From assembly GCA_958296135.2 (NCBI GenBank), contig CATQHZ020000001.1, positions 3,904,001 through 3,968,000 on the forward strand: 64,000 bases of DNA, in the 5' to 3' direction. Below, piece after piece: positions 10,368 to 43,505 of the stretch. The translations under genes and the position numbers were made by a program. The notes under the pieces are model-generated. The model did not search any database and was not told the origin of the DNA. It saw nothing but the letters and a program-made list of their open reading frames with translations. Source of the DNA: an uncultured Poribacteria bacterium. GTDB lineage: Bacteria > Poribacteria > WGA-4E > WGA-3G. Positions within the stretch are counted from its first letter, which is position 1; each line of letters opens with the position of its first letter.

Positions 10368-10648
10368 ACCGTAGCGCGAGGGAAAACCTGTCCCTCGCGA
10401 GGCTCAGAACCGCCCCCTGCAACCGTAGCGCGAGGGCCGTCACGGTCACGCCTACAGAAAATGTGCGTGTGTCGCCCCGCGTAAACACGCTACCTTTAAC
10501 TTTGTCATCTCTGCAGCCTCGCTGCAGAGATGTCCACTGTCCATCGCGAGGAACAGAACCGCCCCTGCAACCGTAGCGCGAGGGCCGTTACGCCGAAACT
10601 TTGTCATCTCTGCCGCCTCGCTGCAGAGATGTCCACTGTCCCTCGCCA
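10368..10648. repeat. REP cluster carrying two nested elements
   Basis: 'accgtagcgcgaggg...ccctcgcg' three times; inserts at 10439-10537 and 10587-10636. Confidence 0.85.
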
Positions 10649-10696
10649 TCTATGATGGATAATACAAATGAATCTGATGCTAGGAATAGCAAAAAT

Positions 10697-11122
10697 ATGA
10701 ACAGCCAAGAGCCCCGCTGGATACAACGAGCCACTAGTTTTGGCAAGGCTTTATCGCGATTGCGAGCCGCTGTTGAATTGGCGGCGCAACGCGAACTCTC
10801 CGATTTGGAACAGCAAGGGTTGATCCAAGGGTTTGAATATACTCACGAATTGGCATGGAAGACCTTGAAGAATTTCCTTGAAGCCCAAGGCGTGCAAAAT
10901 TTATACGGGGCGAGGGATACAACCCGTGAGGCTTTTAACCGAAGCCTCATTGAAAACGGCGAAGTCTGGATGGATATGATTGACAAACGCAACCTGACTT
11001 CGCATACGTATGATGAGGCAACTGCAGATCAGGTTGGGGACTCTATTCTCAACACTTACTTTGTGGAGTTTGAGACGTTGCTAAAGAGACTCGCTCAACT
11101 GAGGCAGGGAGAATCTTTATGA
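10697..11122 (+). CDS. HEPN-type nucleotidyltransferase substrate-binding protein (HI0074 family; putative toxin)
   Basis: GLIQGFEYTHELAWK and RNLTSHTYDE (RxxxxH HEPN motif). Confidence 0.9.
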   Translation: MNSQEPRWIQRATSFGKALSRLRAAVELAAQRELSDLEQQGLIQGFEYTHELAWKTLKNFLEAQGVQNLYGARDTTREAFNRSLIENGEVWMDMIDKRNLTSHTYDEATADQVGDSILNTYFVEFETLLKRLAQLRQGESL

Positions 11123-11502
11123 AATACGGATTGTCAACGCGGACGCGCCAAGAGCTCGCCAAGGTCTTCAGTCGCTACCCCGAAGTGGAAGAAGCGGTAT
11201 TATACGGTTCGCGGGCCAAAGGCACATATAGAAACGGGTCTGACATCGATCTGACACTCAACGGCAGTGCAGAACTCACACATACTATTGTCTCTCGCAT
11301 CGCGAATGACTTCTATGAGGGACCCCTGCCCTATAAGATCGATCTCTCCATTTTCAACAAACTTCGTAACCCGGAGATGGTTGCGGAAATTCAGCGCGAT
11401 GGCGTAGTACTTTACAAAAAAGGTGATTTGGGCGAGCCGGTAGGCGCCGTTGAAAACCGCGCCTATGGGGATGTACGAAAACAAAACCCATGCAAAAACT
11501 AA
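11119..11502 (+). CDS. Minimal nucleotidyltransferase (MNT; putative antitoxin)
   Basis: LYGSRAKG...GSDIDL motif; ATGA overlap with the HEPN gene. Confidence 0.9.
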
Positions 11503-12269
11503 AAATCGCGGATAAAACCTATCACTCCAGACTGCTCATCGGGACAGCCGGATACCCGAATTTTCACGTGATGACAGAAGCAGTAGCGGCAAGCGGTGCC
11601 GAAATCGCTACCGTCTCAATGCGGCGCGTGAAATTCACCGACGTGTCCGGCGAGAATGTGTTTGCGTTGCTCCGCGAGCGCAGCATCACCATTCTGCCGA
11701 ATACAGCAGGCTGTTTCACGGCGAAGGATGCCATCCTCACGGCGCACCTCGCGCGCGAGGCACTAGAGACACCGCTCATCAAACTGGAAGTCATCGGCGA
11801 TGAACAGACGCTGTTTCCCGATGTCGAGCAGCTGCTCAGTGCAGCGGTGACGCTAGTCAAAGACGGGTTCACGGTGCTGCCCTATTGCAACGATGATCCG
11901 ATTACGTGTAAGAAGTTAGAGGATATCGGGTGTGCCGCCGTAATGCCGCTCGGCGCGCCGATCGGCTCAGGCATGGGCATTCGGAACCCCTATAACCTAC
12001 AGATCATCCGCGGTAGCGTGCAGGTGCCCCTCATCGTCGATGCCGGCGTCGGCACCGCATCAGATGCAGCGGTGGCGATGGAATTAGGATGCGACGGTGT
12101 GCTGCTCAACACCGCGATTGCGAAGGCGCACCGCCCGGTGCTCATGGCAGAAGCAATGAAAAAAGCGATCGAGGCGGGCAGGGCGGCATTTTTAGCGGGC
12201 CGCATCCCGCGCAAACTCTATGCGAACGCCTCTAGCCCGCAAGAGGGGCTCATAGCACCGCTCCTGTAG
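11490..12269 (+). CDS. thiG: Thiazole synthase
   Basis: [37 protein letters not shown] and GVLLNTAIA motifs. Confidence 0.97.
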
Positions 12270-12445
12270 GAGAGACCTAAAGATCGCGGGGACAGGCCCC
12301 CGCGCTACGGTGCTCATAGCACCGCTCCTGTAGGAGAGACATCCCGCGTCTCGACTCCACTTCTGGTAGGAGAGACATCTGGTCTCGATGCAATACCGGC
12401 GGAGAGACATCCCGCGTCTCGATGCAATACCGGCGGAGAGACTCA
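12248..12445. repeat. REP cluster with duplicated thiG 3' end
   Basis: 'gctcatagcaccgctcctgtaggagagac' at 12248-12276 and 12312-12340, followed by 'ggagagacatcccgcgtctcga' units. Confidence 0.8.
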
Positions 12446-12465
12446 ATCTAAAAAAGGAGAACCTC

Positions 12466-13320: not shown

Positions 13321-13361
13321 ATTGTCTGGGCGGATGTCGTTACTATCCGCCCACAACGATA

Positions 13362-17890: not shown

Positions 17891-17895
17891 GGGGG

Positions 17896-28324: not shown

Positions 28325-29445
28325 GAGAGACCTCGGGTCTTGATTCTCGGTGCCTGTCCCTCGCGATCGCCCGACCTCCCCAACGGCCCCCTTTCACCGT
28401 AGCGCGAGGGCCCGGCGATCACTAATCGACGAGGGTTCCCCTCGCGATCACCCGACCTCCCCAACGGCCCCCTTTCACCCTCGCGATCGATGCATGGCGC
28501 AGCACAGGACCGCGCCCTACGGACGAAGAAGCATTTTCACCGCAGCGCGAGGGAAAACCTGTCCCTCGCGTTCCCAAACGGCCCCTTTTTACCGTAGCGC
28601 GAGGGCCGTTACGCCGAAACTTTGTCATCTCTGCAGCCTCGCTGCAGAGATGTCCACTGTCCCTCGCGATCGCTCTCACGCCGAGAACGTCCGCAGCCCC
28701 ATAGCGCCAGGGAAAACATGGCCCTCGCAATCGCCCGATCCCCCAAACGGCCCCTTTTCACCGTAGCGCGAGGTCCTGTGCCTCGCGATCTCTCTCGCAC
28801 CGAGAACGCCCGCAGCCCCGTAGCGCGAGGGAAAACATGGCCCCCGCAATCGATGCATGCGCAGCACAGGACCGCGCCCTACGGGAACGGAAGGGTCGCA
28901 TGGCGAGGGAAAACCCGGCGAGCACGTTCCCAAACGGCCCCTCTTCACCGTAGCGCGAGGTCTTGTGCCTCGCGATCTCTCTCGCACCGAGAACGCCCGC
29001 AGCCCCATAGCGCCAGGGAAAACATGGCCCTCGCTATCGGTGCACGGCGCGGCACAGGCCCGCGCTCTACGGGAACGGAAGGGTCGCGTGGAGATCGAGA
29101 GACAGCGAGGGACAGGCCCTCGCCCTACGGACTAAGGAGCATTTTTACCGTAGCGCGAGGGCCCGGCGAGCGCGTTCCCAAACGGCCCCTTTTTACCGTA
29201 GCGCGAGGGCCGTCACGCCGAAACTTTGTCATCTCTGCAGCCCCGCTGCAGAGATGTCCACTGTCCCTCGCGATCTCTCGACCTCCAAGAAAGCCCTTTT
29301 TTACTCGCGCAAAGCATGGCGCGGCACAGGACCGCGCCCTACGGACTAAGGCCCCTCTTCACCGTAGCGCGAGGGCCTGTGCCTCGCGATCGCTCTCGCA
29401 CCGAGAACGCCCGCAGCCCCGTAGCGCGAGGGCACCCCTCGCGAA
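28320..29445. repeat. Large REP mosaic (BIME-like)
   Basis: Many 'ccgtagcgcgaggg..ccctcgcga' units in both orientations with duplicated linkers; nested elements at 28608-28657 and 29212-29261. Confidence 0.9.
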
Positions 29446-29477
29446 TCGTTTTTTGTGCATTTTTTTTGCATTTTAAC

Positions 29478-29506
29478 TTGACTTTGCCCCAAAAATGTGG
29501 TATAAT
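29478..29506 (+). promoter_or_regulatory. Sigma-70-like promoter
   Basis: TTGACT-17nt-TATAAT with an extended -10. Confidence 0.7.
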
Positions 29507-29622
29507 TAATACATGAATTAGTAAAAAGCGCATTTTTAACGCAATCTTTCACAGAACCGCGCCAAACGCTCGCGCGGACACGCGAACGAGAATACAGCAT
29601 TACACGACTTTAGAGACACACG

Positions 29623-31233
29623 ATGAAAATACGAAACCTCCTCCGACAACCCGCATCGGACACGACGCTCTTCTTCTGCTGCCTCTGCGCCGTCCTCGGC
29701 GGCATTATCCTCCACAACGCAAACAAACAGGCTGACAGCTTTATCACCATCGCCCACGATGAGCCGGAACGGTTCGTCAATGGCAAGAATATCTTAATCA
29801 AGAGGGTGCACGAAGACAGCTGGGACATCGCCTACGGCTTTTCCGACGATTGCCCCGCCAGTGAAAAAACCGAGGAGAACCTCGCTATCATCCGCGAAGC
29901 CTTGGAAAAAGCAATCAGAATGTGGTTAGCTCCTCTACGGGAAATCAGCGATAAACCGATTGTCGATAAGTTCAATTTTTATGATCTCAGTAAAGAGACC
30001 TGGCACATCTTCGCTAGGTTTAGGTGCGATTTTGGCAGATCGCGTGCTGGCCGTGAGGTGAGAAAAATTGTCATGAAAAAAGTAAATTGGGGAAAACCTA
30101 TTTCTCCAGACCTGCCCTATCGCTTGAGCGACCTACTGCATGAACTCGGACACACCTTCGATCTCGCCGATACCTATGTAGAGGAGGGGAGGGGGGAAAG
30201 CTTTGTCAGCACCGGCAACCTCAGCAACACCAGAGGCAAACACCCGAAATCGGTTATGTCCTCGGTACATTGCAGGGAGAAACTCTGTGATGACGACAAG
30301 AAAGCTATGCAGTGGCTGTATCGCTATCACTACGAGGGACTCGATCCCACAAACTGCCCGCCGGACTATGTCTACGATGAACTCCCCGGCGATCGACAAA
30401 TCGGTGGCTGTGTGCCCCGGCAACCGCTGATCTTTGAGGCTCGGCAAGGACATATCAGTCTTGTAATAAGAATGACCAAAGAAAACAAAAACCTACTGAT
30501 CAATGATCAGGATGCGGATGGCAATACGGCCCTGCACCATCTACCTCTCTCGGTGCACGAAAGGGTTTCCGATGGAGCGTGGGAAGAAGTATTACAATCG
30601 GTACTCGCCTACCCAAATATCGACATCAACATCAAAAACAACGCCCAAAATGGACACAACACTGCCCTACACCTCGCGGCTCGCTTCGACAGACATGTCA
30701 TGGTCAAGATGTTACTCGCAGTCACAGGCGTTGAACTCAACGCCCGCAATACCCTCGGCATGACCCCCTTACACTACGCGGCAAAGCGTGGACATGTCGA
30801 AAGTGTCAAACTCCTGCTGGCGCATTCAAACATCAACCCGAATCTCCGCACGGAGGCAGGGCTCACCGCCTTGCAGATTGCGCAGCGGCGCGATGACATC
30901 AACGCGGTCCTCGCCGCCTGGGCGGCGGAGCCAGAGCAGCTACTGGCACATAGATACAATAACCTGGACCTGGCGAACTTCATCCCGTCGCCGTCGGAGT
31001 TACAGCAGGGCCGTGCTGAGATCGCCGCGTTGTTGCGTGCGCATCCGCGGATAATCCTACCGGCGGCATCAGACATCAACGGCGATGGCATTGTGAACAT
31101 CTTAGACCTCGTGAAGATTGCCAATGTGTTTGGGCATCCCTTCGATGGCCCAGAGGATGTCAACGGCGATGGCATTGTAAACATCTTAGATTTAGTGTGG
31201 GTATCCGGCGCGTTTGGGCAGGCGGCGGACTAA
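29623..31233 (+). CDS. Zinc metalloprotease-ankyrin repeat-dockerin protein
   Basis: LHELGHTFDLAD (HExxH); GNTALH, NTALHLAA and GMTPLHYAA ankyrin repeats; DINGDGIVNILDLV twice. Confidence 0.85.
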   Translation: MKIRNLLRQPASDTTLFFCCLCAVLGGIILHNANKQADSFITIAHDEPERFVNGKNILIKRVHEDSWDIAYGFSDDCPASEKTEENLAIIREALEKAIRMWLAPLREISDKPIVDKFNFYDLSKETWHIFARFRCDFGRSRAGREVRKIVMKKVNWGKPISPDLPYRLSDLLHELGHTFDLADTYVEEGRGESFVSTGNLSNTRGKHPKSVMSSVHCREKLCDDDKKAMQWLYRYHYEGLDPTNCPPDYVYDELPGDRQIGGCVPRQPLIFEARQGHISLVIRMTKENKNLLINDQDADGNTALHHLPLSVHERVSDGAWEEVLQSVLAYPNIDINIKNNAQNGHNTALHLAARFDRHVMVKMLLAVTGVELNARNTLGMTPLHYAAKRGHVESVKLLLAHSNINPNLRTEAGLTALQIAQRRDDINAVLAAWAAEPEQLLAHRYNNLDLANFIPSPSELQQGRAEIAALLRAHPRIILPAASDINGDGIVNILDLVKIANVFGHPFDGPEDVNGDGIVNILDLVWVSGAFGQAAD

Positions 31234-31239
31234 AAAAAC

Positions 31240-31785
31240 CTGTCCCTCGATGCTCCGTTGTAGGAGAGACCTCCGGTCTCGATGCCTTCTCCCTTTTCAC
31301 CGTGCGCGAGGGAAAACCCGGCGAGCGCGTTCCCAAACGGCCCCTCTTTACCGTAGCGCGAGGTCCTGTGCCTCGCGATCTCTCTCGCACCGAGAACGCC
31401 CGCAGCCCCATAGCGCCAGGGAAAACATGGGCCCCGCAATCGGTGCATGGCGCGGCACAGGACCGCGCCCTACGGACGAAGAAGCATTTTTACCGTAGCG
31501 CGAGGGCCTGTCCCTCGCGATCGCTCTCGCACCGAGAACGTCCGCAGCCCCGTAGCGCGAGGGAAAACCCGGCGATCGCGAATCGCCGAGGGTGCCCCTC
31601 GCGATCGGTGCATGGCGCAGCACAGGACCGCGCCCTACGGTAAGGGAAGGGTCGCGTGGCAATCGAGAGACAGCGAGGGACAGTGGACATCTCTGCAGCG
31701 GGACTGCAGAGATGACAAAGTTTCGGCGTGACGGCCCTCGCGCTACGGACTAAGGAGCCTTTCCCTGTCCCCCGCCATGCACCCC
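31240..31785. repeat. REP mosaic closely related to 28320-29445
   Basis: 31306-31475 closely matches 28903-29072; nested element in reverse orientation at 31683-31732. Confidence 0.9.
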
Positions 31786-32978
31786 TACCGCACCTGCTCC
31801 AAAACGACAATGTCCCCAGGATTCCACGATTGCGCGATGATATAGAACTTGCCACCAATCTTCCGAATTACCGCACCGTGCAAATGCTGGAACGTCTTTA
31901 CGCCGAGCTCTTCCTTCAGCATGACGGTTGAGACAAGATTGTTACCTTCCAAAATGTAGAGCGGCGCACCTTTATTTTTATCAGGACCATGGAGACACGC
32001 AACGACAGCATACCCCGCCTCATAGTCGATGCTACACGGAAAAGCACCTTTGATCAGCGGCAGCGTTTCAAGATACGTGCCATCAGGAGAATAGCGTTCA
32101 ACTTCCGCATTCGCCCGGTCGGAAATATCCAACCGGTTTGTGCCATACGGCACCGTGATGTGGTGCCCCGTCCCGAATTGCCCCGGCTCATCACCCTTGC
32201 CGCCGAATGCCAACGGATACCACGCTACTAACGGCGTAAAATTGGTAGACGCCGCAATACTCCCGAGGGGAGGACTTCTTCTACCAAGGTTCGGCGCAAA
32301 ATTGGTAATCTTCGCACCCAAAATATAGTCCAATTTCGAGTAGCCGGTCGTGACGTAAAGCATACCATCGACATGCGTTACGCCTGTCGGCACAAACTTG
32401 CCGCCCTCACTGAAATAGGTGTTAACCGCCTGCACTTGGAAATCAGTCATCGCGTCGGGGGCCTCTAGTGTGTGGACGAGCTTGCCATCTAGCGTCGTTG
32501 TGAACACTTTTCCGACATCGTTCGCGGGAAACGAGAGGTAAGGCGTGCCATTGGTGGCTGTCCAGACAGTGGCATAGTGCGCATTCGCCGCTTTCAAAGC
32601 AGGCGGGGTTTCAATAAGCCGCGTCGTCTTCAAATCTGCACTGATTTGGATGATACCGACACCAGGGAGCGCGAAGTAGGTTTCACCCTTGCCGGGCCGC
32701 CGGTCTACGTCAAATCCGCCGTGTGCTTTGTCAATCGCGGCGACGACTTCGGGAGGAAAGTGCTCGCGGGTGTAAAGCACTCTGAATTTCAGCGCGCCTT
32801 GTCCGCTCGTCTGCTGCACCGCTGTCTCGTGGTGCGCAACGAATTGGAAATGCTCAGCGGATGAACGGACATGGAAATCTGTCCCCACATTCGGGGCGTG
32901 TTCGTTCACGTGCGCGGCAGCATTGCCTATTGCGAAGGTAACGCTGAAAATTAGCGTGAAAAGCATTAAATATCTCAT
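31785..32978 (-). CDS. Secreted beta-propeller (NHL/peptidylglycine lyase-like) protein
   Basis: Signal peptide from MRYLML; AHGGFDVD, GGKGDEPGQFGTGH and SDRAN motifs. Confidence 0.7.
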   Translation of the reverse strand: MRYLMLFTLIFSVTFAIGNAAAHVNEHAPNVGTDFHVRSSAEHFQFVAHHETAVQQTSGQGALKFRVLYTREHFPPEVVAAIDKAHGGFDVDRRPGKGETYFALPGVGIIQISADLKTTRLIETPPALKAANAHYATVWTATNGTPYLSFPANDVGKVFTTTLDGKLVHTLEAPDAMTDFQVQAVNTYFSEGGKFVPTGVTHVDGMLYVTTGYSKLDYILGAKITNFAPNLGRRSPPLGSIAASTNFTPLVAWYPLAFGGKGDEPGQFGTGHHITVPYGTNRLDISDRANAEVERYSPDGTYLETLPLIKGAFPCSIDYEAGYAVVACLHGPDKNKGAPLYILEGNNLVSTVMLKEELGVKTFQHLHGAVIRKIGGKFYIIAQSWNPGDIVVLEQVR

Positions 32979-33040
32979 CGTAAAAATCTCCTTCGTGAGA
33001 GTGTGAGGGACAGGGCCTCGCACTACGGGCCAAAGGCACT

Positions 33041-33838
33041 TTATGGTTGGATCATCGCCCGGAATTTCTTGGTAAATTCGCAGCTGCGTTTGACGCTCGC
33101 CACGTCTTCCATTTTATATTGAACGACGAGGGGGCCGGCGAAGCCGATTTCTTTCAAGCCGCGCGCGAACGTCTCAAAATCGAAAACACCACCGCCCGGC
33201 TCACCGCGGTTGCTGCCGGAGACATGCACATCGCCCAAGCAAGCCTTCATCGCGTGTGCGGCAGCATGCGGCTCCGCCCCATCGTTGAAAAGGTGATACG
33301 TATCGCACGTCAGATAGACAGGTAATCCCGTGTCCTCAATGAAGGCGACACCTTCGCGGTAGTTGTCAAGCGGGCAGCCCTTCTCGAACTCCAGCGCGAT
33401 TTTCATGCCGTTTTCCTGACAGGGAGAGAGCATGTGCGATAGGTTATCGGCGAGCGTCTCCAGCGATGCTGCCCGCGACGCATCCGCGCAGGGATTCACC
33501 CAGACTCCGATGACATCAGCCTCAAAACGGCGCGCGACCTCCAGCACAATCTCAAAGTGCTTAAGTGCCGCCTCCTTTTTTGCAGGTGTCGTCAAAATAT
33601 GGTTGCCAAAGCCTATCGTCGGGGCGATGAGGTTATGTTTTTCTGCAAGATTGACTGCATCCGCTATGCCAGCGGTGTAGGCGGGTGCACCGGCTCCCGA
33701 TGAAGGTTCACCGAGAAACGCGGCATTCACGGGGATGTTGATGCCATCGTATCCCGCCGCCGCCACAAGACTGAAGATGTCGGCACGCGTCAATCTGCCT
33801 AAGGTGCCTGCGTAAGGGTCATAGCAAACAGGTAGCAT
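33041..33838 (-). CDS. Sugar phosphate isomerase/epimerase (xylose-isomerase-like TIM barrel)
   Basis: IALEFE, CDTYH, DVHVSGSNRGEPGGG; RBS aaggag upstream of ATG 33838. Confidence 0.85.
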   Translation of the reverse strand: MLPVCYDPYAGTLGRLTRADIFSLVAAAGYDGINIPVNAAFLGEPSSGAGAPAYTAGIADAVNLAEKHNLIAPTIGFGNHILTTPAKKEAALKHFEIVLEVARRFEADVIGVWVNPCADASRAASLETLADNLSHMLSPCQENGMKIALEFEKGCPLDNYREGVAFIEDTGLPVYLTCDTYHLFNDGAEPHAAAHAMKACLGDVHVSGSNRGEPGGGVFDFETFARGLKEIGFAGPLVVQYKMEDVASVKRSCEFTKKFRAMIQP

Positions 33839-33866
33839 TTTTTCTCCTTGAAAGATTTTTGAGGCT

Positions 33867-33895
33867 ATGCTAGCATGAATGCAGTTCTGTGTCAA
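33867..33895 (-). promoter_or_regulatory. Sigma-70-like promoter
   Basis: Minus strand TTGACA-17nt-TAGCAT. Confidence 0.55.
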
Positions 33896-34079
33896 GACAC
33901 AACTTTTTTGAAGAAAACCCCTCTTGAAGTTGACTAACTTCACATCACATCTCAGGACTTGCGCAGAACGCCTCAACCGAACATGACAGATTTGCGGAAG
34001 CCCTAATCTATTATTTTTCAGCGATGCACGGCGAAGGATAGGCCCGCGCCCCACGGTATGAAAAAAAAGGAGCATCTCC

Positions 34080-34556
34080 ATGAAACGCACACACAGCATT
34101 CTTCCCATAATCGCCATCCTGTTGGCGGCTATCCTGATGAGCAGCTGCTCACGGACAAGTGACTTGCCCATTAGTGATAGCGGCGAAGAAGACAACACCG
34201 AATTCGCGCTGGACGAACAATACGATAAAGTCCGAGCCGGCGCACGCCTGATTTTAACCTACGACGCGCAGACGAATTCCTTCAAAGGCACCGTCGAAAA
34301 CACGACGAACGAAACTTTGAAGCAGGTACGCGTGGAAGTCCACTTGTCAAATGGCATTGAGCTCGGCCCGACAACGCCGGGAGATCTTGCCCCCGGTGAG
34401 ACAAGAGACATCGTGCTCATCGCAACCAGCACCGACTTCAACGGATGGACAGCGCATCCCGAAGTCGGCGGCGGCGGTGGCGGCGAATCCGGTGAGAGCG
34501 GACATAGCGGCGAATCTGGTGAACATGCCGGAGAACAAGGAAATGAACACAATTAG
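34080..34556 (+). CDS. Lipoprotein with FxLYD-like Ig domain and Gly/Glu/His-rich tail
   Basis: LMSSC lipobox; GTVENTTNETLKQVRVEV...DLAPGETR. Confidence 0.75.
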   Translation: MKRTHSILPIIAILLAAILMSSCSRTSDLPISDSGEEDNTEFALDEQYDKVRAGARLILTYDAQTNSFKGTVENTTNETLKQVRVEVHLSNGIELGPTTPGDLAPGETRDIVLIATSTDFNGWTAHPEVGGGGGGESGESGHSGESGEHAGEQGNEHN

Positions 34557-34623
34557 AAGGATGCGGAAAGGGATAGGGAAACCCGGTTATGGGCTTCCCT
34601 GCTCCCGCGGCCTTAGTGCCGCT

Positions 34624-35235
34624 ATGAAATACCTATTCGCACTCATACTGCTATTCGGGAGCGCAGGGCTCGCATACGCAGCAGCTGCCCCCGACAACAT
34701 CCTCAAAAACGGCGACTTCGACCTGAACCTGGAGCAGTGGCACCCTTGGACGCACGAGAGTGCCGCCGCACTCTTCCAAACAGAAGGCAAAAAGGCGGAA
34801 CCCATCGCGGGGAAGAAAGCCGCCGCTATTGAAATCAAAAAGCCGGGCAACGCTCCCTGGCACATTCAGTTCTATCAGCAGCCTTTCACGCTGGAGAAAG
34901 GCAAGACGTATACCTTCAACCTGTGGGCGAAGAGCGAAACACCGCGTCCTGTTCGGATGCGCATCCTCCATCAGGGAGACCCGTGGAACGAATACGCTGT
35001 CAAGGACATCAATCTGTCTGAAGCGTGGAAGGAGTTCTTCGTCACGTTTACCATGCCCGCGGACGATGTGAATTCACGCGCCGGCATTATCATGGGCGGC
35101 CAGAAAGGCGACGTTTGGTTGGATCATCTCCGTCTTTATGAAGGCGAATTTGTCAGCGACATCGAAGACGCAGCACCGCAGGCAGTCGAACCTTCGGCTA
35201 AATTGGCGACGACGTGGGCATCCATGAAACTGTAG
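34624..35235 (+). CDS. Secreted carbohydrate-binding (CBM4/9-like) protein with a KLATTW tail
   Basis: NILKNGDF, WHIQFYQ, LEKGKTYTFNLWAK; ends VEPSAKLATTWASMKL. Confidence 0.8.
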   Translation: MKYLFALILLFGSAGLAYAAAAPDNILKNGDFDLNLEQWHPWTHESAAALFQTEGKKAEPIAGKKAAAIEIKKPGNAPWHIQFYQQPFTLEKGKTYTFNLWAKSETPRPVRMRILHQGDPWNEYAVKDINLSEAWKEFFVTFTMPADDVNSRAGIIMGGQKGDVWLDHLRLYEGEFVSDIEDAAPQAVEPSAKLATTWASMKL

Positions 35236-35424
35236 ATGAAGGCTCGCGGGGGACAGGCCCCCGCGCTACGAGGGCGAAGAGGCGAGTGCGGGAGCGCGAT
35301 GCGGTTTTTTCTTGCAAATTCGGGCGCAAAATTGTATCATATCCGTGAAACCGCGCACCTCGGCAGTATCAAAAGTTGTAGGAGCGAATTCCCAATCAAG
35401 ATGTTTCATTCAGGAGGCAAACCG

Positions 35425-36204
35425 ATGAAATTCGATAAATGTTTGACGCTCGTTTGCACCGCCATCGTTCTCTGCGCAGCAGTCACGGCGGGAGTACACG
35501 CGCAAGCTATTGAGGACGGATTGGCAGGACACTGGACTTTTGACGACGGTGACATCAACGGCGACACCGCCGTAGACGCTCTCGGCGAACACGACGGCGA
35601 GATTAAGGGCAAACCGCAAGTCGTAGAGGGCATTGTCGGCGACGCACTCAGTTTTAACGGCAAGGAAGATTATGTCGTCATGGGCGCAGTTACCGAAGGA
35701 CAGAACGTCACCTACGCAATGTGGGTGAAAGTAGCCGCCCTTCCCGCGGGCCCAAAGGTTATCATCTGGGACGATGACCCGCAGGGCGGCGGCGACTCGT
35801 GGCTGGAACTCCTGGCGGATGGCACAGTGCAAACCCAAAGAAACGGCGACGGGTTCGGTGTCTTCAAAACCACAACGCCTATCCCAGAGGACGAATGGAC
35901 GCACATCACCTTCGTCGCCGATGGCGATAACGAAAAAAAGATCCTTTACCTCAACGGCGCAGCGGATGCCGAGGCTGATGGAACAATCAACAGCCGCGAC
36001 ACGCGCAGTCACGTCGTTGTTGCCGTCGGGCATGACAGGAACGCTTTTATCAAACCGCTCTATTTTGAAGGCGAGCTCGACGATGTCGCCGTTTACAACC
36101 GCGCATTAGAGGAAGACGAGGTTATGGACAATTTTGCGATAGCCTTCGCGGTGGAGGCGAACGGAAAACTCGCGCTCACGTGGGGTGCCATAAAAACGCG
36201 CTAG
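35425..36204 (+). CDS. Secreted LamG/concanavalin-like domain protein with a KLALTWG tail
   Basis: GHWTFDDG, GDALSFNG, EWTHI, FEGELDDVAVYNRAL; RBS ggagg. Confidence 0.88.
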   Translation: MKFDKCLTLVCTAIVLCAAVTAGVHAQAIEDGLAGHWTFDDGDINGDTAVDALGEHDGEIKGKPQVVEGIVGDALSFNGKEDYVVMGAVTEGQNVTYAMWVKVAALPAGPKVIIWDDDPQGGGDSWLELLADGTVQTQRNGDGFGVFKTTTPIPEDEWTHITFVADGDNEKKILYLNGAADAEADGTINSRDTRSHVVVAVGHDRNAFIKPLYFEGELDDVAVYNRALEEDEVMDNFAIAFAVEANGKLALTWGAIKTR

Positions 36205-36310
36205 TTTTTCCGGCAGGCGCGCGTTGCAAGCGCGCATGACGCAACGAACGCGGGGACAAACCACGCCTACCGATAAGGAAGGAAGGCGTGCTCAGAAACA
36301 TACCAAAAAT

Positions 36311-38917
36311 ATGAAATTGCTGCCTATTTTTATCCTCTCGCTTTTTATCGCATCGGCATCCGTTGCAAACGCGCTGCCTGCAGACGCAGAACTCCAAAAC
36401 GCTATCCAAACCGCCCGGCTGTTTACGAAACTCAAACCGCGCTACACTGCTAATGAGATAAACGAATGCGCAACCGATAGTTTCGTCACGCTCGCCAAGA
36501 ATTGGCAGAACGTGCCCTCGGTACATCGGCAGGAACTCAAGGGAATATTTCTGCGGCCCGGACTGCCCGGCAGTCTGTTCGGGGATATGGTGCTACCCCA
36601 GCAGTTCAACACGCCGCACTTCAGACTCCACTACACGCGCGTCGGACCGCAGGCACCCCCCCTAGAAGATTTCCACCCGCGCAACGGGGTCCCAGATTAT
36701 GTCGACATTTGCGCCGATGCCATGGAACGGGCCTATCACATACAACTCGATCTGATGCAGTTTAAAAAGCCTTATCTCGATTTTTGGGCGATGCAGAACG
36801 GCGGCAATCACAAATACGATGTCTATCTCTTCACTTTCCCCGCCCTCGGCATTACGACAGCAGACTGGTTTGAGGGACGTGTGCTCTCCACAGCACTGAC
36901 GGTGGCACCTTATTTTATGCTCAACTCGCGCATCTACGACTACGTCGGGAAGGCCGAGGGGAAACGTTATATTGAGACGACTTGCGCGCACGAATTCCTG
37001 CACGGCATCCAATTCGGCTATAACGCTTACATGCCAACGTGGTTCATGGAGGCATCCGCAACATGGATTGAGATTATGACTTACGATGGCGGACGCATCA
37101 ACGATGGCGACAATATCCCAGACCCGGACGAACCCAACGAAACCGATGCCTATAACTACTATATCCATCAACTGCGCCGCTGGTTCTTGCACCCGGATAT
37201 TGCACTAGAAAGCCGCATCGGGGACCACGAATACGGCTCGGTTATCTGGACATTGTACATGGCGGAACGGTTCGGCTACGACATCATCAGGGAGTTCTTC
37301 GGAAACACTACCGATGGCAGCTATCGCGAAATGGGCAATTTCTACGATGTCTTCACCGACCGGGGCACCAACCTCGCGGAAGCGTTTAAGACGTTCACGG
37401 TGTGGAATTATTTTACTTACGACAGGGCAGGGCTGCGAACGGGCGCGCAAGGTTACACGAACGCGCATCGCTTCCCACCGGTTGCGATACATCCTCACGA
37501 TGTCCACGCCGCCTATCCGGTCCGCACTGATTTTGACTCGGAATCGATGCCCGAGCATTTCTCGGCGCGTTACATCGTGTTTCGGCCCGCGGGGATTCTG
37601 CCAGAATTCGCCGTGAAAATTGATGGCGCAGACCTGGCACCAATAGACACACGCAACCTGACGCGCGACGACGCAGAGGATATTCAAAATGAACTCAACC
37701 GACACACGTTCACCGGGTTGCGCGGATGGGCAGCGAAATTCATCGTCAGAAAACGGAACGGCACGACAGAAGTGCGGGAAGCCTTCACCTATCAGCGTTC
37801 GCAAGAAGCGCAAATGACGTTCAAGGATTTCGGCGGCGAGATTCAGGAAATCACGCTCATCCTCATCAACATGCATCCCGATGTCGAACAGGTCATCGTG
37901 CCGGGCGGTACTTTTGGCGGCTCGGTGAGTTATATGGCGGGGCCCCCACCGGTAGGCAGGCTTGCAAACGTGCAAGTCCGGCAAGGAACCAGCGGGCCCA
38001 TCGTGGCGTGGGATGTTACGAATCCCGCGGGCATCCAAGAAGTGGCAATTGTGCGCAAACGCTACACGCTGGCGAGCGAGACAGATGTGCCGCAACCTCT
38101 TCAAAACGCCGCGGAAGTGCTTGCCGCCGCCGACCGGGACGGAAATGGCATTGCGGAGGACGATATAACGCTCGTCGGGCGCGTGCCTGTGACGCAAACC
38201 CGATTTGAGGATACCACCGTTTTTCAAGATGTTGATGTCACTAGTGAACTCTTCGATGCGAATACTGTCCACTATTTCTACGCCGTCGTGCCGGTTGACG
38301 CGATGGGTATCCTGGGCACGCCGAGTCTCGCGCCGAATAGCATCACACCGGCATTTGATTCTGGGAGCGCGGCACCCGCTTTCTTTATTCAGACGCAGCG
38401 GCGCGGCATTGGCGTGTGGCGAGTTGAGGTGCGCAGCACGCACGAACTGCAAAGCGCCCCAACCTTAGGGGTGGAAAGTCCCGACAGGCAAAGTCATTCC
38501 ATCTTTTTAACGCGAGAAACGCCGATGAAATGGGTGGGAACGCTGACAACAGACGGGTTTCCGCCGCCCGGCACTTATCTCTATCGGATTCGTGGTGAAA
38601 CGCCCGCCGGCGTATCAGGCTCCCGCATTTGGCAAGGACGAACCTTCAACTATATCGCGACGAACACGCATCGAAACGTCACCGTCGCGCCGAACCCCCT
38701 CTATGCCGGGCAAAGCGGACACCTTCAGTTCTATCCGCGAGGCTTAAGCGTGCAAATTTACGACGCGCAAGGCACCTTAATTAAAGTGCTTGACTCCGCC
38801 TCCGAGTGGGATTGCACCAATCAACGCGGCGAAATGGTATGTGCCGGGCTCTATTTCTTCCGCGCAACCGATGGGAACGGCTTTGTCAAAACAGGCAAAT
38901 TCTGTATTGTGAAATGA
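36311..38917 (+). CDS. Secreted putative zinc metalloprotease (MXAN_6640-like) with T9SS-like CTD
   Basis: HFRLHYT, NGVPDYVD, AHEFLHGIQFGY, WFMEASATW; C-terminal VAPNP...IYDAQG...WD...GLYF. Confidence 0.8.
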   Translation: MKLLPIFILSLFIASASVANALPADAELQNAIQTARLFTKLKPRYTANEINECATDSFVTLAKNWQNVPSVHRQELKGIFLRPGLPGSLFGDMVLPQQFNTPHFRLHYTRVGPQAPPLEDFHPRNGVPDYVDICADAMERAYHIQLDLMQFKKPYLDFWAMQNGGNHKYDVYLFTFPALGITTADWFEGRVLSTALTVAPYFMLNSRIYDYVGKAEGKRYIETTCAHEFLHGIQFGYNAYMPTWFMEASATWIEIMTYDGGRINDGDNIPDPDEPNETDAYNYYIHQLRRWFLHPDIALESRIGDHEYGSVIWTLYMAERFGYDIIREFFGNTTDGSYREMGNFYDVFTDRGTNLAEAFKTFTVWNYFTYDRAGLRTGAQGYTNAHRFPPVAIHPHDVHAAYPVRTDFDSESMPEHFSARYIVFRPAGILPEFAVKIDGADLAPIDTRNLTRDDAEDIQNELNRHTFTGLRGWAAKFIVRKRNGTTEVREAFTYQRSQEAQMTFKDFGGEIQEITLILINMHPDVEQVIVPGGTFGGSVSYMAGPPPVGRLANVQVRQGTSGPIVAWDVTNPAGIQEVAIVRKRYTLASETDVPQPLQNAAEVLAAADRDGNGIAEDDITLVGRVPVTQTRFEDTTVFQDVDVTSELFDANTVHYFYAVVPVDAMGILGTPSLAPNSITPAFDSGSAAPAFFIQTQRRGIGVWRVEVRSTHELQSAPTLGVESPDRQSHSIFLTRETPMKWVGTLTTDGFPPPGTYLYRIRGETPAGVSGSRIWQGRTFNYIATNTHRNVTVAPNPLYAGQSGHLQFYPRGLSVQIYDAQGTLIKVLDSASEWDCTNQRGEMVCAGLYFFRATDGNGFVKTGKFCIVK

Positions 38918-39834
38918 AAAAAGCACTCTATTCCTTCCTAGAATTAGGCATCACGAGTCCGGCAGCCGCGGGCTCCAACCGCGCACGCCATAACGCGCGC
39001 CTACGGGGTTTGTCCTGTGTGAACTCGCTCCTCTTTATCTTACTGATTTTGACAGGGTGCGGAGACGACGGCCTTGTCAATCCGCACGGCGAAACAACGC
39101 TGCCCCCACCCGATACAACAGGCCTCCACGCCATCGATTTTCCGACAGATACCGGCTCCGCATGGACATACGTCAACGTTAACACGAATCAGGAATTTAC
39201 AGTACGCATCGAAGGCACGCGGGACATCAGCGGCACAACGCATCGGCAGATGACTGTGGGACGAATTAGTCCGGTTGCGCAGGACGCGCTCGACAGGGAG
39301 GCACTCGACCATTTATCCGCGAATGCTTTCTATTTTCGTGTACCAACGGAATCCGAGTTTTTTCAGGAGTTCCCGTTCCCCATCTCTGCTACCTACTTTT
39401 ACAAAACGCCGCAAGCGTTGATAGAATCGGCGTTTGACGCTTACATCTTCCCGTGGAGTAATCCGACGTTTCATCAGAAGCACGCGCCGCCGCGCCGCGT
39501 ATGGGATTTCCCGCTGAAAATCGGAAAAGAGTGGACAGTCTTTGAAAAAACAGTCGGAGACCCGGTCACGGTGACGCGCTATGTCGTGGATAGAGATGTC
39601 CGAATAACCGTGCCCGCCGGCAGTTATCGCACCTATGTCGTTCAGGAAGAAGCAGTTTTCGGAGACAGCGACAATCCGACAACGCGGTTCATCAGCCCGC
39701 CGGCAGCGTATTGGATCGCACCCGAGGTGGGTATTGTCCAATATAGATATAGCCAGTATCGCGCTACTGATGCACTGGCGACGCAAACGTTCGCGCTGAA
39801 AAGTGTGCATCTGCCGGGACCGAACACGGACTGA
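38914..39834 (+). CDS. Hypothetical lipoprotein
   Basis: ATGA overlap with the protease gene; LTGC lipobox; ITVPAGSY and WIAPEVGIV motifs. Confidence 0.75.
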   Translation: MKKALYSFLELGITSPAAAGSNRARHNARLRGLSCVNSLLFILLILTGCGDDGLVNPHGETTLPPPDTTGLHAIDFPTDTGSAWTYVNVNTNQEFTVRIEGTRDISGTTHRQMTVGRISPVAQDALDREALDHLSANAFYFRVPTESEFFQEFPFPISATYFYKTPQALIESAFDAYIFPWSNPTFHQKHAPPRRVWDFPLKIGKEWTVFEKTVGDPVTVTRYVVDRDVRITVPAGSYRTYVVQEEAVFGDSDNPTTRFISPPAAYWIAPEVGIVQYRYSQYRATDALATQTFALKSVHLPGPNTD

Positions 39835-39998
39835 TACGCAATTCACCGTTGGCAACTATCAGGAGCTCTGGCTCTACAGATGAGCCCCAACAGCACCGTC
39901 TCTGAACCGTAGCGCGAGGGAAAACCCGGCGAGCGCGAATCGCCGAGGGTTCCCCTCGCAGCGGAGTCTCTATATCCGAACCCCATCTCCAAAAAAAG

Positions 39999-41306
39999 AT
40001 GAAAAATCTAGCGCATCGGAACATCCCGATTACCATTATCGGCGGCGGGATACACGGCATATCCATCGCGCTACGCCTACGCCGCGAAATGCCGACGACA
40101 GCACTCGCCATTGTGGATAGGCATCCGCTGCCGCTCACGGCGTGGCAGCGCAAAACCGAACGTCAAGGCATGACGTTCCTCCGCTCACCTGCTGTCCATC
40201 ATATCACGCCTGATGCGTTAGGCATCGTTGAATACGCCGAACACCACAACCGCAACGATGAATTGGCACCGCCGTACGCCCAACCTTCAACGCCGCTTTT
40301 CTGGGATTTTTGTCATGATGTGTTAGAAGAAGGCATCGCGAACGGGGGGGAACGCCTACTGGAAAATGGAATTTATTATCAATTTGATGTCGCGAAATTG
40401 CGGTGGGATAAGGGCGCAGGTTCATATCCGTTCCGCCTAGTTTCAACCGAGAATGTCGGCTTTCGGAGCCGGTGTGTCATCCTCGCAATCGGTTCTGATG
40501 ATTGTGCTCATGTGCCGCAGGAATTTGTGCCATGGCAACGCCGATGGCCGGAGAGGATAGTACACGCATCGCGAGTTTCGGTGAGTCCGGGGGATTGCGA
40601 GGGCCAAAGGACAAAAGAAAGTCCCCTCGCGCTACCGACTGAGCAGAAGCCGATTGCCATCGTCGGAGGAGGATTAACAGCTGGCACGCTGGCAAGAAGC
40701 CTCAGCGAACGCGGACACGAAGTAGTGCTCATCGCACGGCAACCGTTGAAAACGGAGCAGTTCGATTTTCCACCAGCCTGGTTGGGACCGAAGGCACTCG
40801 CAGAATTTACGCGGGAGACCGGTTTTCAGCGGCGCTATGAAATAATCCAACAGGTGCGGGGGGCAGGAAGCATCACGCCAGATATTGCAAAAGCCTTGAA
40901 GGACGCACCGCGTGTCGCTATCTATACCGACACTTGCATCCGAGACATCACGGAAGAGCGCGGGAAAACGCTACGCCTGCACCTTGAGAATTCAGGCATC
41001 ACCCCAGAAGCAACGAAGCAACCGCTAGGAACAATAAAAAACGTTTCTTGCGTTATTCTCGCGACAGGGTACCGATTTAACCTGCGGCGTTATCCATTTT
41101 TGGCAGAATTGCTGACACAGCACGAAGTGCCGCTTGTCCGCGGATTACCCAGACTTGATGCCTCTCTGCAGCTGCTTCCTGTCACCAATCTTTTTGGGAC
41201 AGGCACTATCGCGCAATTGCAACTTGGGCCCGCGGCAGGGAATATCGCTGGCGCGAGTCTCGCCTATGAACGCCTACGCAAACAAATTTTACCGCAGTTT
41301 GCCTAA
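39999..41306 (+). CDS. FAD/NAD(P)-binding oxidoreductase (SidA/IucD-like)
   Basis: IIGGGIHG, LRSP...H, IVGGGLTAG, ILATG, LGPAAGNIAGA. Confidence 0.8.
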   Translation: MKNLAHRNIPITIIGGGIHGISIALRLRREMPTTALAIVDRHPLPLTAWQRKTERQGMTFLRSPAVHHITPDALGIVEYAEHHNRNDELAPPYAQPSTPLFWDFCHDVLEEGIANGGERLLENGIYYQFDVAKLRWDKGAGSYPFRLVSTENVGFRSRCVILAIGSDDCAHVPQEFVPWQRRWPERIVHASRVSVSPGDCEGQRTKESPLALPTEQKPIAIVGGGLTAGTLARSLSERGHEVVLIARQPLKTEQFDFPPAWLGPKALAEFTRETGFQRRYEIIQQVRGAGSITPDIAKALKDAPRVAIYTDTCIRDITEERGKTLRLHLENSGITPEATKQPLGTIKNVSCVILATGYRFNLRRYPFLAELLTQHEVPLVRGLPRLDASLQLLPVTNLFGTGTIAQLQLGPAAGNIAGASLAYERLRKQILPQFA

Positions 41307-41340
41307 ATTTCTGCAGACACCCGTGCTTCTGAATTCGGTA

Positions 41341-41946
41341 TTATGCCTGCTGCGCTACCATGCTAGCGAGGATGCCCAGGATTTTATCACACTACCGGAT
41401 TGGGTAGAGCTCCATATCAATGTGCAAACACCTTGCCGCCAATTTGAGGAATTTCCAATCTACGCCTGTTGTAGTAGCACCATAAACCCACGAGATGTCA
41501 TTCCCTTTTTCCGCGTTAAAGCGTTGGGCGGCAACCATCTCTGCCGCACACTGCCCAAGCCCAAGCGTGAGGGCATCCTTCTTCGCCCCCACAAGAGCCA
41601 TGACAGGGGCCTGCAACAAATGCTGGACAGGGGACAAACTGACTAAAAAATCGCACACGCCTGTCAATTCGCTATCCACATCAACGCTGAAGTCAATCCC
41701 CGAAAAAAGGCTGATGCGCCGGTCCGCGTGTTCGCGGAGTTCAACGAGAACCGGGGCGACTATCAATTCTGACTTCGCCTTCTCTGTGTTGGTCGCACTC
41801 GCTAACTGTACATTTCTCGCCAAATCTGCAGTGAAACGGGACCGCGGGGCCACCGGCACGACTTCAGCGAAAAGATTCGCGGACTCGGTGATTTCTAACT
41901 GGAACGTTGTCACTACAGCATCCAACGTAAAACTACTATAGGCCAT
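41341..41946 (-). pseudogene. PD-(D/E)XK nuclease-like protein with a premature stop
   Basis: MAYSSFTL...G.CDF...GQCAAEMVAAQRFN; the in-frame TAG at 41394-41392 is followed by CDKILGILASMVAQQA*; VEAK is changed to VGAK. Confidence 0.7.
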
Positions 41947-41958
41947 CTGATAAAACCT

Positions 41959-42840
41959 CTAGCGGGTGAGCGCATACGCGACGACGTTCATTCCCTGCTT
42001 AAATGCCCAGACCCGCTGTTCTTCGCCGCCGGGACTGCACGGACGCCCTTCCCAAGCGCAGTTGAGATCGCTCGGACAAAAGTAGACCAGCAGCCGGTCA
42101 TCGTCCATGATAGCCTCGTCAGCGTCGCAGACACCGGGAATCAGTTTATCGCCGCCCATATATTCATCATGCTGATAGAGCGTGTGGTAAATTGGATGGC
42201 TCATGTCCAGCGTCTCGAACTGCTTTTCGGGGTAGACCTGGCGCATCATCTCGTAGATATACGGCCGCAAACCGCCCCTGCCGCCATTAAGGCGTGCGTC
42301 GCAATCTTCAACGTGAAGGAAGCCGCCGCGTTCAAGATACTCACGCAGCTTCCGCACCTGCTCCGTTGACAGCCGAATCCCGCGGTGTCCCGTCATAAAG
42401 AGATACGGATAGGCAAACAGCCCAACATCATCGATGTCAACATACTGCGGATTTTCACGAACCTCCACGTCAATCGAAGTATTCGCGGCAAGCACTTCCG
42501 AAAACTTCAGGTCGGACTGCCAATAGTAATAGTTAAGGATGTTCGTATACCAGTCGCCGCCCGGGTATTTGAGGCGCACGAAGGTGAACTTCTCCCCGGT
42601 CGGATTCATCTCCGGATAGTGGTGTTCCACGATGCCGGGCCGGGAGTAACTAGTGCCATAGTGGAGGTCGCGGGCGGCATCGTAAGGGATGTACTCGCGG
42701 AAGCCGAATTGTGCTTCCGCTGTCTGGAGCAAACTTCCTCCGGTGATGGCAGAAGCAGCGATGCCAGCGGCACCTTTGATAAAGGAACGCCTTGACAGCG
42801 GCCGCGTCTTCTCTTCAGTTGGTTTCCAGTTGATTAACAT
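41959..42840 (-). CDS. DUF4159 domain protein with Tat signal
   Basis: SRRSFIKG twin-arginine signal; GGDW, YPYLFMTGH, LREYLERGGFL, HPIYH, DLNCAW, GMNVVAYALT. Confidence 0.85.
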   Translation of the reverse strand: MLINWKPTEEKTRPLSRRSFIKGAAGIAASAITGGSLLQTAEAQFGFREYIPYDAARDLHYGTSYSRPGIVEHHYPEMNPTGEKFTFVRLKYPGGDWYTNILNYYYWQSDLKFSEVLAANTSIDVEVRENPQYVDIDDVGLFAYPYLFMTGHRGIRLSTEQVRKLREYLERGGFLHVEDCDARLNGGRGGLRPYIYEMMRQVYPEKQFETLDMSHPIYHTLYQHDEYMGGDKLIPGVCDADEAIMDDDRLLVYFCPSDLNCAWEGRPCSPGGEEQRVWAFKQGMNVVAYALTR

Positions 42841-42866
42841 TGCGTTTCCTCCTTTAACGTATCTGA

Positions 42867-43505
42867 ACCGTCGCGCGCAGCGCGATTGCTACCCCCTGCC
42901 GTAGCGCGAGGGCCTGTCCCTCGCAATCGCTACTTCTTGAACCGTAGGGCGAGGACCTGTCACCCGCAATCGCCCTTCTTGAACCGTAGCGCGAGGGCCG
43001 TCACGCCGAAACTTTGTCATCTCTGCAGCCTCGCTGCAGAGATGTCCACTGTCCCTCGCGATCGCCCCGCCCTACCGTAACACGAGGGAAAACTCGCGAT
43101 CTCCCCGCCTTACTGACGCACGATGACCTGTCACCCGCAATCGCCCCTTCTTGAACCGTAGCGCGATGACCTGTCACCCGCGATCGCCCCTTCTTGAACC
43201 GTAGCGCGAGGGCCGTCACGCCGAAACTTTGTCATCTCTGCAGCCTCGCTGCAGAGATGTCCACTGTCCCTCGCGATCGCCCCGCTCTACCGTAACACGA
43301 GGACCTGTCACAATCGCCCCTTCTTGAACCGTAGCGCGAGGACGTGTCCCTCGCGATCGCCCCGTAGTACCCGACGCATGGCGAGGGACAGGCCCGCGCC
43401 CTACGGGACGCGGCGCGAATCTGGGCACGGTGAGGAACACACCCGCGCCCTACGGGACGCGGGACGAATCTGGGCACGGCGAGGAATACACCCGCGCCCT
43501 ACGGG
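42867..43505. repeat. REP mosaic with nested elements
   Basis: Repeated 'ttcttgaaccgtagcgcga...' units; nested elements at 43000-43049 and 43215-43264. Confidence 0.9.

Follow-up and report, generated by a model that had tools for sequence, protein, structure and literature searches.

How does a piece of DNA that encodes no gene come to sit, time and again, at one exact point in the loop of a short hairpin repeat? The question is posed by a 64,000-nucleotide stretch of the genome of an uncultured Poribacteria bacterium (the window; positions 3904001-3968000 of contig C1 in a 5.19-Mb assembly, G000, of 94.7% completeness), in which members of a family of repetitive extragenic palindromes (REPs) carry a 50-nt element, here called the cassette, within their loop. 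The original prediction had read it either as a non-autonomous element that parasitises the REP and is mobilised in trans, or as one old insertion that spread together with the REP. Our findings show that the cassette is real, abundant and lineage-specific, and that it is a variant inside the world of REPs and REP-associated tyrosine transposases (RAYTs) rather than a new kind of system. As to its movement, we favour, at about even strength, a non-autonomous, gene-less and modular loop cassette that is moved by the single-strand chemistry of REPs and RAYTs, with an enzyme that we infer.

Results

The cassette in the window

A 33-nt cassette core (up to three mismatches) matches the window seven times, at 10500, 10599, 28620, 29224, 31688 (reverse strand), 43012 and 43227, against 0 matches in 100 shuffles, and the left arm of the host REP matches 42 times (up to two mismatches) against a shuffle mean of 0.77. 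On direct reading, every copy has the layout GTAGCGCGAGGGCC^GT(C/T)ACGCCGAAAC(T/G)TTGTC, 12-bp hairpin, GTCCAC^TGTCCCTCGC, where carets mark the points of insertion (or, below, of cleavage); the cassette itself thus starts with GT(C/T)ACGCC and ends with GTCCAC. The REPs concerned, together with empty ones and with a further loop content, form B, are as follows.

10425..10547, forward strand: REP with a 99-nt long cassette at 10439-10537 (left arm 10425-10438, right arm 10538-10547), in the order GTCACG, one 49-nt unit, linker, hairpin, TCCAC
10573..10646, forward strand: REP with a 50-nt cassette at 10587-10636, in which the C28 allele makes a C.T mismatch in the hairpin stem
28594..28667, forward strand: REP with a 50-nt cassette at 28608-28657
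29198..29271, forward strand: REP with a 50-nt cassette at 29212-29261
31673..31746, reverse strand: REP with a 50-nt cassette at 31683-31732
42986..43059, forward strand: REP with a 50-nt cassette at 43000-43049
43201..43274, forward strand: REP with a 50-nt cassette at 43215-43264, within a unit of ~215 nt duplicated from 42986
42901..42924, forward strand: empty REP GTAGCGCGAGGGCC^TGTCCCTCGC with a 7-bp stem, the loop CCTGT holding the CC^T site
31495..31518, forward strand: empty REP of the subtype at 42901
31552..31602, forward strand: REP with loop form B (..CCCGGCGATCGCGAATCGCCGAGGGTGCC..)
28399-28452: REP with loop form B

The anatomy originally described for the window was thus borne out: the core search and direct reading recover all seven copies, the 99-nt version and the empty REPs at 42901 and 31495 are plain to see, there is no target duplication besides one ambiguous C, and the 12-bp hairpin folds as claimed in the A28 version of the cassette.

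A modular family of about 218 copies

A tolerant search of the whole genome finds about 218 cassettes, every one of them on C1, so that the seven copies of the window stand but are far from the whole family. A recognisable REP left arm immediately precedes GTYAC in 204 of the 218 copies and TGTCC lies directly 3' of the cassette in 188, and the orientation within the host repeat is fixed, with 220 direct junctions versus 0 inverted ones. Measured from the REP left arm, the copies fall into discrete length classes.

49-51 nt: 141 copies
72-81 nt: 5 copies
97-107 nt: 31 copies
148-155 nt: 15 copies
186-197 nt: 9 copies
at least 234 nt: 3 copies
no recognisable left junction within 260 nt: 14 copies

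Long forms consist of GTCACG, one to four or more tandem 49-nt units, each of which begins with GGTCACGCC and terminates in ACAC, and then the linker and the same hairpin. The 99-nt version, originally listed as a single variant, is hence real but belongs to a series (97-107, 148-155, 186-197 and at least 234 nt) built from these units. Among the 14 copies in the last class, those that were read are arrays of more than 260 nt, double hits to the palindrome on the reverse strand, truncated copies, or copies in a second host repeat described below. In a few cassettes a hairpin arm contains an extra insert, or the hairpin is longer and conserved in its interior, and others are slippage-type deletion derivatives that retain the exact right junction. 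Four copies have a palindromic insert of ~30-85 nt (GCTGTCGATCG...CGATCGACTGAGC) nested in the left arm of the hairpin.

C1:1676947: cassette with nested palindromic insert
C1:1144726, reverse strand: cassette with nested palindromic insert
C1:4557022: cassette with nested palindromic insert
C1:3744907, reverse strand: cassette with nested palindromic insert

The 139 short copies comprise 59 haplotypes with common polymorphisms at positions 3, 14 and 28, of which all eight combinations are present and in linkage equilibrium (r2 <=0.014). Three polymorphisms of intermediate frequency that are unlinked within 25 nt are unusual in a family made by copying. The same copies show C.T mismatches in the hairpin stem at pair 28-36 (54 copies) and at pair 20-44 (12 copies), and compensatory change is limited to 5 cells. 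The cassette ends, GTCACG... and ...GTCCAC, are not mutual inverted repeats and flank no target duplication, which sets the cassette apart from miniature inverted-repeat transposable elements, and an Rfam scan of the whole window at gathering threshold yielded no family for it.

The host REP and its loop contents

The host REP, GTAG(C/G)GCG(A/G)GGGCCTGTCCC(T/C)CGC, places GTAG directly 5' of a GC-rich imperfect palindrome. When empty it folds into a GC stem of 7-8 bp with a 5-nt CCTGT loop (-8.3 kcal/mol; 0 of 200 shuffles fold equally well). Allowing two mismatches, we count 819 copies, visibly arrayed, in G000, and 1178 and 4463 copies in its two congeners, G001 and G002; beyond the genus, 3 matches occur in one other genus and 0 in the remaining 37 genomes searched. 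REP units include conserved linkers, and many share 45-nt linkers on both sides. Counted by exact patterns, occupancy differs between the arm subtypes.

C-A/T subtype: 90 of 279 REPs filled
G-A/T subtype: 25 of 113 REPs filled
C-G/C subtype: 19 of 88 REPs filled
G-G/C subtype: 0 of 25 REPs filled

The three fillable subtypes are each occupied to 22-32%, the cassette alleles show no significant association with the arm subtype (p = 0.06-0.8), and the same arm subtypes occur empty in the congeners. Loop form B, ..CCCGGCGATCGCGAATCGCCGAGGGTT.., is present in 215 copies in G000, 1 in G001 and 0 in G002, and it alternates with cassette and empty loops in the same REP-unit lineages. The bases on its right side differ from those of the empty loop, so that form B does not count as a clean insertion.

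Filled REPs are also distributed differently between the strands. Judged by GC skew, the C-rich strand carries GTAG in 86/117 cassette REPs (74%) and 66/87 form B REPs (76%) versus 181/309 empty ones (59%), a difference (Fisher p ~0.005) that holds after collapsing arrays. This stronger bias fits a replication-linked, strand-specific origin or merely a younger age.

At C1:3732978-3736307 (locus L001), a bona fide RAYT gene (125 bits for REP_Tyr_transpos) lies amid a second family of REPs (GTAGGAGAGACC..GGTCTC), which is also present in G002; we count 144 occurrences of a related pattern in G002 and 3 in G000. An apparent REP insert in G002 was rejected, as it proved to be a second REP family adjoining the first.

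Were REP loops entered once or many times?

If a single old insertion had spread with the REP, the filled copies would be expected to share identical derived flanks, and the original prediction named this, together with the lack of an autonomous partner, as the outcome that would reduce the cassette to a longer REP subtype. An autonomous partner is indeed lacking in G000 (see below), but identical derived flanks are not what the filled copies show. Among 62 informative cassette copies, the nearest flank neighbour more than 3 kb away holds a cassette in 36% of cases (22.5/62), an empty loop in 44% and form B in 20%, compared with base rates of 23%, 59% and 18%. Whether a REP holds a cassette shows only a weak association with the lineage of its REP unit. 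In the best pairs of distant REPs, whose members are separated by more than 3 kb, 7-10 of the 90 flank positions (45+45 nt) are different and the only other difference is the loop content, which is empty, cassette or form B at the same point; these pairs represent clean presence/absence alleles. Such a partner exists at up to 10 mismatches for 6 of 146 cassette copies and at up to 20 mismatches for 19.

The cassette is also found in a second host repeat, a diverged element of ~130-230 nt that is unrelated to the REP and has at least 80 profile hits in G000. The repeat has ends similar to TATACCAAAT...ATTTGGTATA and is frequently located immediately 5' of genes; the congeners have many compact versions of it. 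Examples on C1 are listed here.

53343-53501: second host repeat
405079-405302: second host repeat
1769591-1769806, reverse strand: second host repeat
1983099-1983310: second host repeat
3242220-3242369: second host repeat
4674158-4674378, reverse strand: second host repeat

Cassettes occupy the centre of this repeat, for example at C1:1769590-1769799 (reverse strand) and C1:1983109-1983299, both in 5' regions, at a point where empty versions read GACC^TGTT, GCCC^CGTT or GCCC^TATT. The occupants are the short form or diverged forms with a long hairpin (C1:4674k, 4362k, 3013k), and long-hairpin cassettes likewise occupy REP loops at C1:583k and 2381k. Seven loci with cassettes in the second repeat had no Rfam match, even at E values of up to 1. 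In the congeners, the compact core of the repeat reads CTGTAG, hairpin, CC^CGTTCGGG..CCCGAAC, TACAG; judged by eye, it would consist of two inverted GTAG-tagged hairpins and thus be REPIN-like. In all hosts the cassette follows CC (GGCC, GCCC or GACC) without duplication. Two kinds of cassette thus sit in the same orientation, at CC^YGT, in two unrelated hairpin repeats.

On our favoured reading, REP loops were entered many times rather than once. One old insertion that spread with the REP is insufficient by itself, because three arm subtypes are filled, a second and unrelated repeat is filled too, and the tie to the lineage of the REP unit is weak.

The cassette is younger than its host

At up to three mismatches, the 34-nt cassette hairpin is found 211 times in G000 and in 0 of 40 relatives searched, the congeners included. 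An exact 30-nt pattern of hairpin plus end had 0 matches in collections of species-representative genomes, metagenome contigs and viral contigs, scans that report exact matches only and may omit records near G000. A scan for the REP-cassette junction returned a single metagenome match (L078), which we reject as chance, since it falls within coding sequence on an unrelated contig of high GC content. BLAST with the long-hairpin cassette finds only pieces of the hairpin interior, in other contexts, in G002. A small repeat of that genome (GGTCACGCCTGTCAAGACG, hairpin, GTCC..CTT) is homologous to the interior of the long-hairpin cassette and lies among arrays of AATCCTG-like short repeats (G002:C1, e.g. 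5054867, 343958, 3217752).

Neither congener has a cassette, yet they carry 1178 and 4463 empty REPs; we conclude that the empty REP came first and that the cassette arose or expanded only in the lineage of G000, later than the REP family. In the orthologous intergenic regions that we examined the congeners have 1-4 REPs where G000 has 3, and elsewhere 0-4 where it has 20, so the arrays of the window are themselves lineage-specific.

A RAYT-like gene among the REPs

A candidate for the enzyme is the product of a RAYT-like gene at C1:4791065-4791610 (open reading frame L002:1411-1956, reverse strand), which is flanked by seven of these REPs, empty, cassette-filled and form B alike. The protein matches Pfam Y1_Tnp with 29.8 bits (cut-off 23), its translation displays HFH and AYIENNP, which we take to be the HUH and the catalytic tyrosine motif, respectively, and a search for related loci returned distant relatives only (28-51% identity). 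A protein search and a Y1 family search did not find the gene in G001 or G002; the Y1 matches of G002 are an orthologue of the other RAYT of G000 (59% identity) and an IS200-type gene broken by two TGA stops. G002 has its 4463 REPs although the REP-flanked RAYT-like gene of G000 was not found there.

The insertion point offers a second connection. As described by Ton-Hoang et al. 2012 (PMC3333891), Escherichia coli TnpA-REP cleaves single-stranded DNA at C^T, for example TGCC^TGAT and GGCC^TACA, with CC^T conserved in the linker sites; it needs a GTAG-REP in cis and has otherwise low sequence specificity, and its strand transfer is proposed by the authors to be a source of variants and tandem copies of bacterial interspersed mosaic elements (BIMEs). 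The insertion point of the cassette, GGCC^TGTC, matches this CC^T motif and coincides with the exposed loop of the hairpin, and the right junction of the cassette, CAC^TGT, is C^T as well.

Discussion

How might the cassette move?

We envision a scenario whereby the REP is extruded as single-stranded DNA and exposes CC^TGT in its loop, where a REP-associated HUH/Y1 transposase, possibly the RAYT-like protein described above, would nick at CC^T. Cleavage and strand transfer might then paste or swap loop contents among copies, and the cassette, having no enzyme of its own, would be carried along whenever REP units are copied. The single-strand route and the cleavage of the loop are, like the enzyme, inferred. 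In favour of this scenario we count the fixed position and orientation of the cassette, its restriction to G000, its several entries, the second host repeat, the clean alleles, the fit to the CC^T motif, the RAYT-like gene among the REPs and the strand bias of filled REPs.

Several of our findings weigh against this scenario. The best NCBIfam match of the candidate protein, REP_Tyr_transpos, reaches 57 bits against a curated cut-off of 80, and the link between presence of the RAYT and presence of the cassette rests on three genomes, one of which is 86% complete. The left junction of the cassette is CC^G and not C^T, and hence would not be made or recut under the rule of the E. coli enzyme. The REP variants GGTCC/GGTCT..TGTGCC, which also have CC^TGT, are filled in 0 of 100 cases, and the G-G/C REPs keep CC^TGT yet are never filled either; a plain CC^T rule is thus insufficient, and a dependence on homology would explain the pattern. 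The linkage equilibrium within the cassette speaks for widespread exchange among copies or for recurrent mutation, not for simple copying, and there is no visible selection for pairing in the hairpin. In the orthologous regions examined, the filling of an ancestral empty REP is not directly seen. Contigs assembled from short reads (four runs of one sample; window 27500-44500) stop at REPs, with all listed joints being repeat-induced, and carry no information on excision, circles or empty alleles.

A broader version of the same scenario, possible in our estimation but rather doubtful, regards REP loops as cassette sites, at which the REP's own HUH transposase would nick the exposed CC^T and paste gene-less hairpin cassettes that start with GTCACGCC. 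These would comprise the present cassette, its 49-nt units and its long-hairpin kin, and they would be tenants of other hairpins in general. On a speculative note, breakage and rejoining by the enzyme at C^T sites between positions 3, 14 and 28 might even be the origin of the unlinked polymorphisms.

Could recombination suffice?

The alternative that survives best dispenses with dedicated mobility. The filled REP would simply be a longer REP subtype, having few origins by illegitimate recombination or template switching at CC/TGT microhomology, and would have spread as REP units were copied and as ~1000 similar units exchanged sequence through ectopic gene conversion or mismatch repair. The missing autonomous copy in G000 agrees with this, as does the observation that REPs with altered arms beside the loop are never filled (0/100 and 0/25), which is what homology-driven exchange predicts. 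The three polymorphisms, in equilibrium over a span of 25 nt, imply that copies often exchange sequence; the 45-nt linkers shared on both sides provide homology enough for conversion; form B, which is no clean insertion, looks as if a variant REP had multiplied in this genome (215 copies, with 1 in G001); and slippage-type deletions and tandem 49-nt units mark a region prone to replication errors. To cross between subtypes, however, a conversion tract would have to stop no more than 5-6 nt from the cassette at either side, yet three subtypes are filled at similar rates and with the same set of cassette alleles. Nor does recombination alone predict the stronger strand bias of filled REPs. A further difficulty is the second, unrelated host repeat, which has nothing but CC and YGT in common with the REP. 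On balance we judge recombination without dedicated mobility to be somewhat unlikely as a full account.

Is the filled REP kept for a function?

Filled REPs might instead be retained for a function of the host in RNA or DNA, such as a terminator, an mRNA stabiliser or a protein-binding site, with their abundance reflecting selection, an idea that is compatible with either mechanism of movement. Relative to shuffled sequence, filled REPs do show better folding (74-nt form, z = -2.9; 123-nt form, z = -5.5), and by a crude call of open reading frames 54 cassette REPs are co-oriented with both flanking genes versus 28 opposed to both. The latter ratio, however, is equalled by empty REPs, at 61 to 34, and such crude gene calls around REPs are unreliable, because spurious open reading frames traverse the REP arrays. 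The stem of the hairpin is unprotected (mismatches in 54/139 and 12/139 copies), Rfam matches were absent from the scans of the cassette in the window and of the seven second-repeat loci, and the congeners live without the cassette. We therefore regard a host function as the cause of abundance as improbable.

Is there a parent element?

The original prediction proposed to look for a long version of the cassette encoding a transposase. None was found in G000 by searches from the left and right ends. Of 220 left junctions, 200 have a right end within 1500 nt, and seven of the remaining 20, when read further, proved to be truncated copies that enter unrelated DNA; no cassette copy in G000 encloses an open reading frame, and neither cassette end flanks one. 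Hairpin arms as the ends of a small gene were also considered and rejected: arms spaced 45-5000 nt apart enclose non-coding inserts of ~30-85 nt or are spurious matches in coding DNA. The suggestion that the cassette is non-coding, non-autonomous and specific for REP loops is well supported, whereas the suggested relation to IS110 or IS200/IS605 elements finds no support. The IS110 DEDD transposase domain PF01548 has no match in the whole of G000, with the same search being positive in 6 of 14 control genomes. No IS200-type TnpA was found in G000, where PF01797 matches two genes only, both nearer the REP-associated type, and the hairpin is present at one end of the cassette only. TnpB genes of several subfamilies are present (34 in G000; Cas12f1-like_TNB) in elements of ~1.3-1.9 kb (e.g. 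2120806, 204121, 567599). As a source of the cassette these were rejected, since their ends, GGGCTCGGTGCAGTGG... and ...TCTAGGGAGCGG, share nothing with it; a cassette lies near 2 of the 34 TnpB loci, there in a neighbouring REP.

Thus, although insertion sequences (ISs) of five families are reported to target REPs, with IS110 best represented (Tobes and Pareja 2006, PMC1525189), although the cassette is always inserted in one orientation, makes no target duplication and has a single subterminal hairpin, and although 34 TnpB genes are at hand, the lack of PF01548, of any PF01797 gene that is not RAYT-like, of matching TnpB ends, of a flanked open reading frame and of a second hairpin in the short form makes a miniature derivative of an IS110 (bridge-RNA) or IS200/IS605 element, mobilised in trans by the recombinase of that element, very improbable.

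Relation to known systems

Palindrome-associated transposable elements (PATEs) are gene-less derivatives of IS200/IS605 elements that keep both end hairpins of the parent IS, and a Y1 enzyme is presumed to act on them in trans. The cassette is similarly small, gene-less and hairpin-bearing, makes no target duplication and is oriented beside a short motif, but it has one hairpin, near its right end, no parent IS in the genome, and the loop of another repeat as its target. BOX elements of Streptococcus pneumoniae, boxA-boxB(n)-boxC, resemble it in having variable tandem middle units of ~45-49 nt between fixed ends, but they have no known relation to it in sequence and are not known to be housed in REP loops.

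The closest parallel is the REP/BIME and RAYT system of E. coli (Ton-Hoang et al. 2012, PMC3333891). GTAG 5' of a short GC-rich hairpin, hundreds of arrayed copies and conserved linkers are common to both, the RAYT-like candidate would correspond to the Y1/HUH gene flanked by its own REPs, and the insertion point GCC^TG fits cleavage at CC^T. Here, in contrast, the loop holds a modular cassette of 50-250 nt that is also found in a second repeat family; the proposed cut lies in the REP's own loop on the GTAG strand, whereas in E. coli the cuts are made beside the inverted REP or within linkers; and, unlike in the TnpA-REP system, the left junction is CC^G and the candidate enzyme is only distantly related (57 bits, short of the cut-off).

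Families of GTAG-tagged REPs are described (Di Nocera et al. 2013, PMC3733652) as combining short and long loop types in proportions that vary by species; some long loops are self-complementary inside, with up to 6-7 bp paired, and some REP dimers lie within other palindromes. Relative to the loop variants described there, the cassette has a 12-bp hairpin with flanks, tandem 49-nt units, nested inserts and a life in a second repeat. The REP-targeting ISs covered by Tobes and Pareja 2006 (PMC1525189), namely IS1397 and ISKpn1 (IS3) and IS621, ISPpu9, ISPpu10 and ISPa11 (IS110), share with the cassette a highly specific insertion into REP hairpins. They are, however, autonomous, at least 1 kb long and equipped with a transposase, whereas we see here neither a gene nor a partner element nor an IS110 gene. 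In a limited search of full-text literature we found no description of a gene-less modular cassette resident in REP loops.

What would the cassette teach us about REPs?

The multiplication and diversification of REPs have been argued mostly from test-tube work with E. coli and from the population genetics of Pseudomonas. G000 adds a natural record of hundreds of data points, in which one REP family exists in three states, empty, with cassette and with form B, and in which these states change inside otherwise identical units, exactly at the motif known for RAYT cutting. If the link to the enzyme is true, oligonucleotides of empty and filled REPs would make a simple substrate pair for cleavage and strand transfer by RAYTs, and hairpin loops exposed on single-stranded DNA would be landing sites for gene-less DNA. 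If it fails, the cassette nonetheless offers a clear case of short repeats evolving in concert through recombination. If REP loops are cassette sites in the broader sense, they would reveal a third tier of genomic parasitism, with cassette on REP on RAYT, and a natural case in which an HUH enzyme delivers cargo into a defined hairpin loop.

Other observations

Besides C1, the assembly of G000 contains a contig C2 of 143,886 bases with 36.8% G+C, compared with 54.4% for C1, and with 0 cassette copies; it may be a plasmid, a phage or contamination. The sole Rfam match in the window, above the gathering score, is a TPP riboswitch (RF00059, 59.7 bits) at window positions 6460-6582 on the forward strand.

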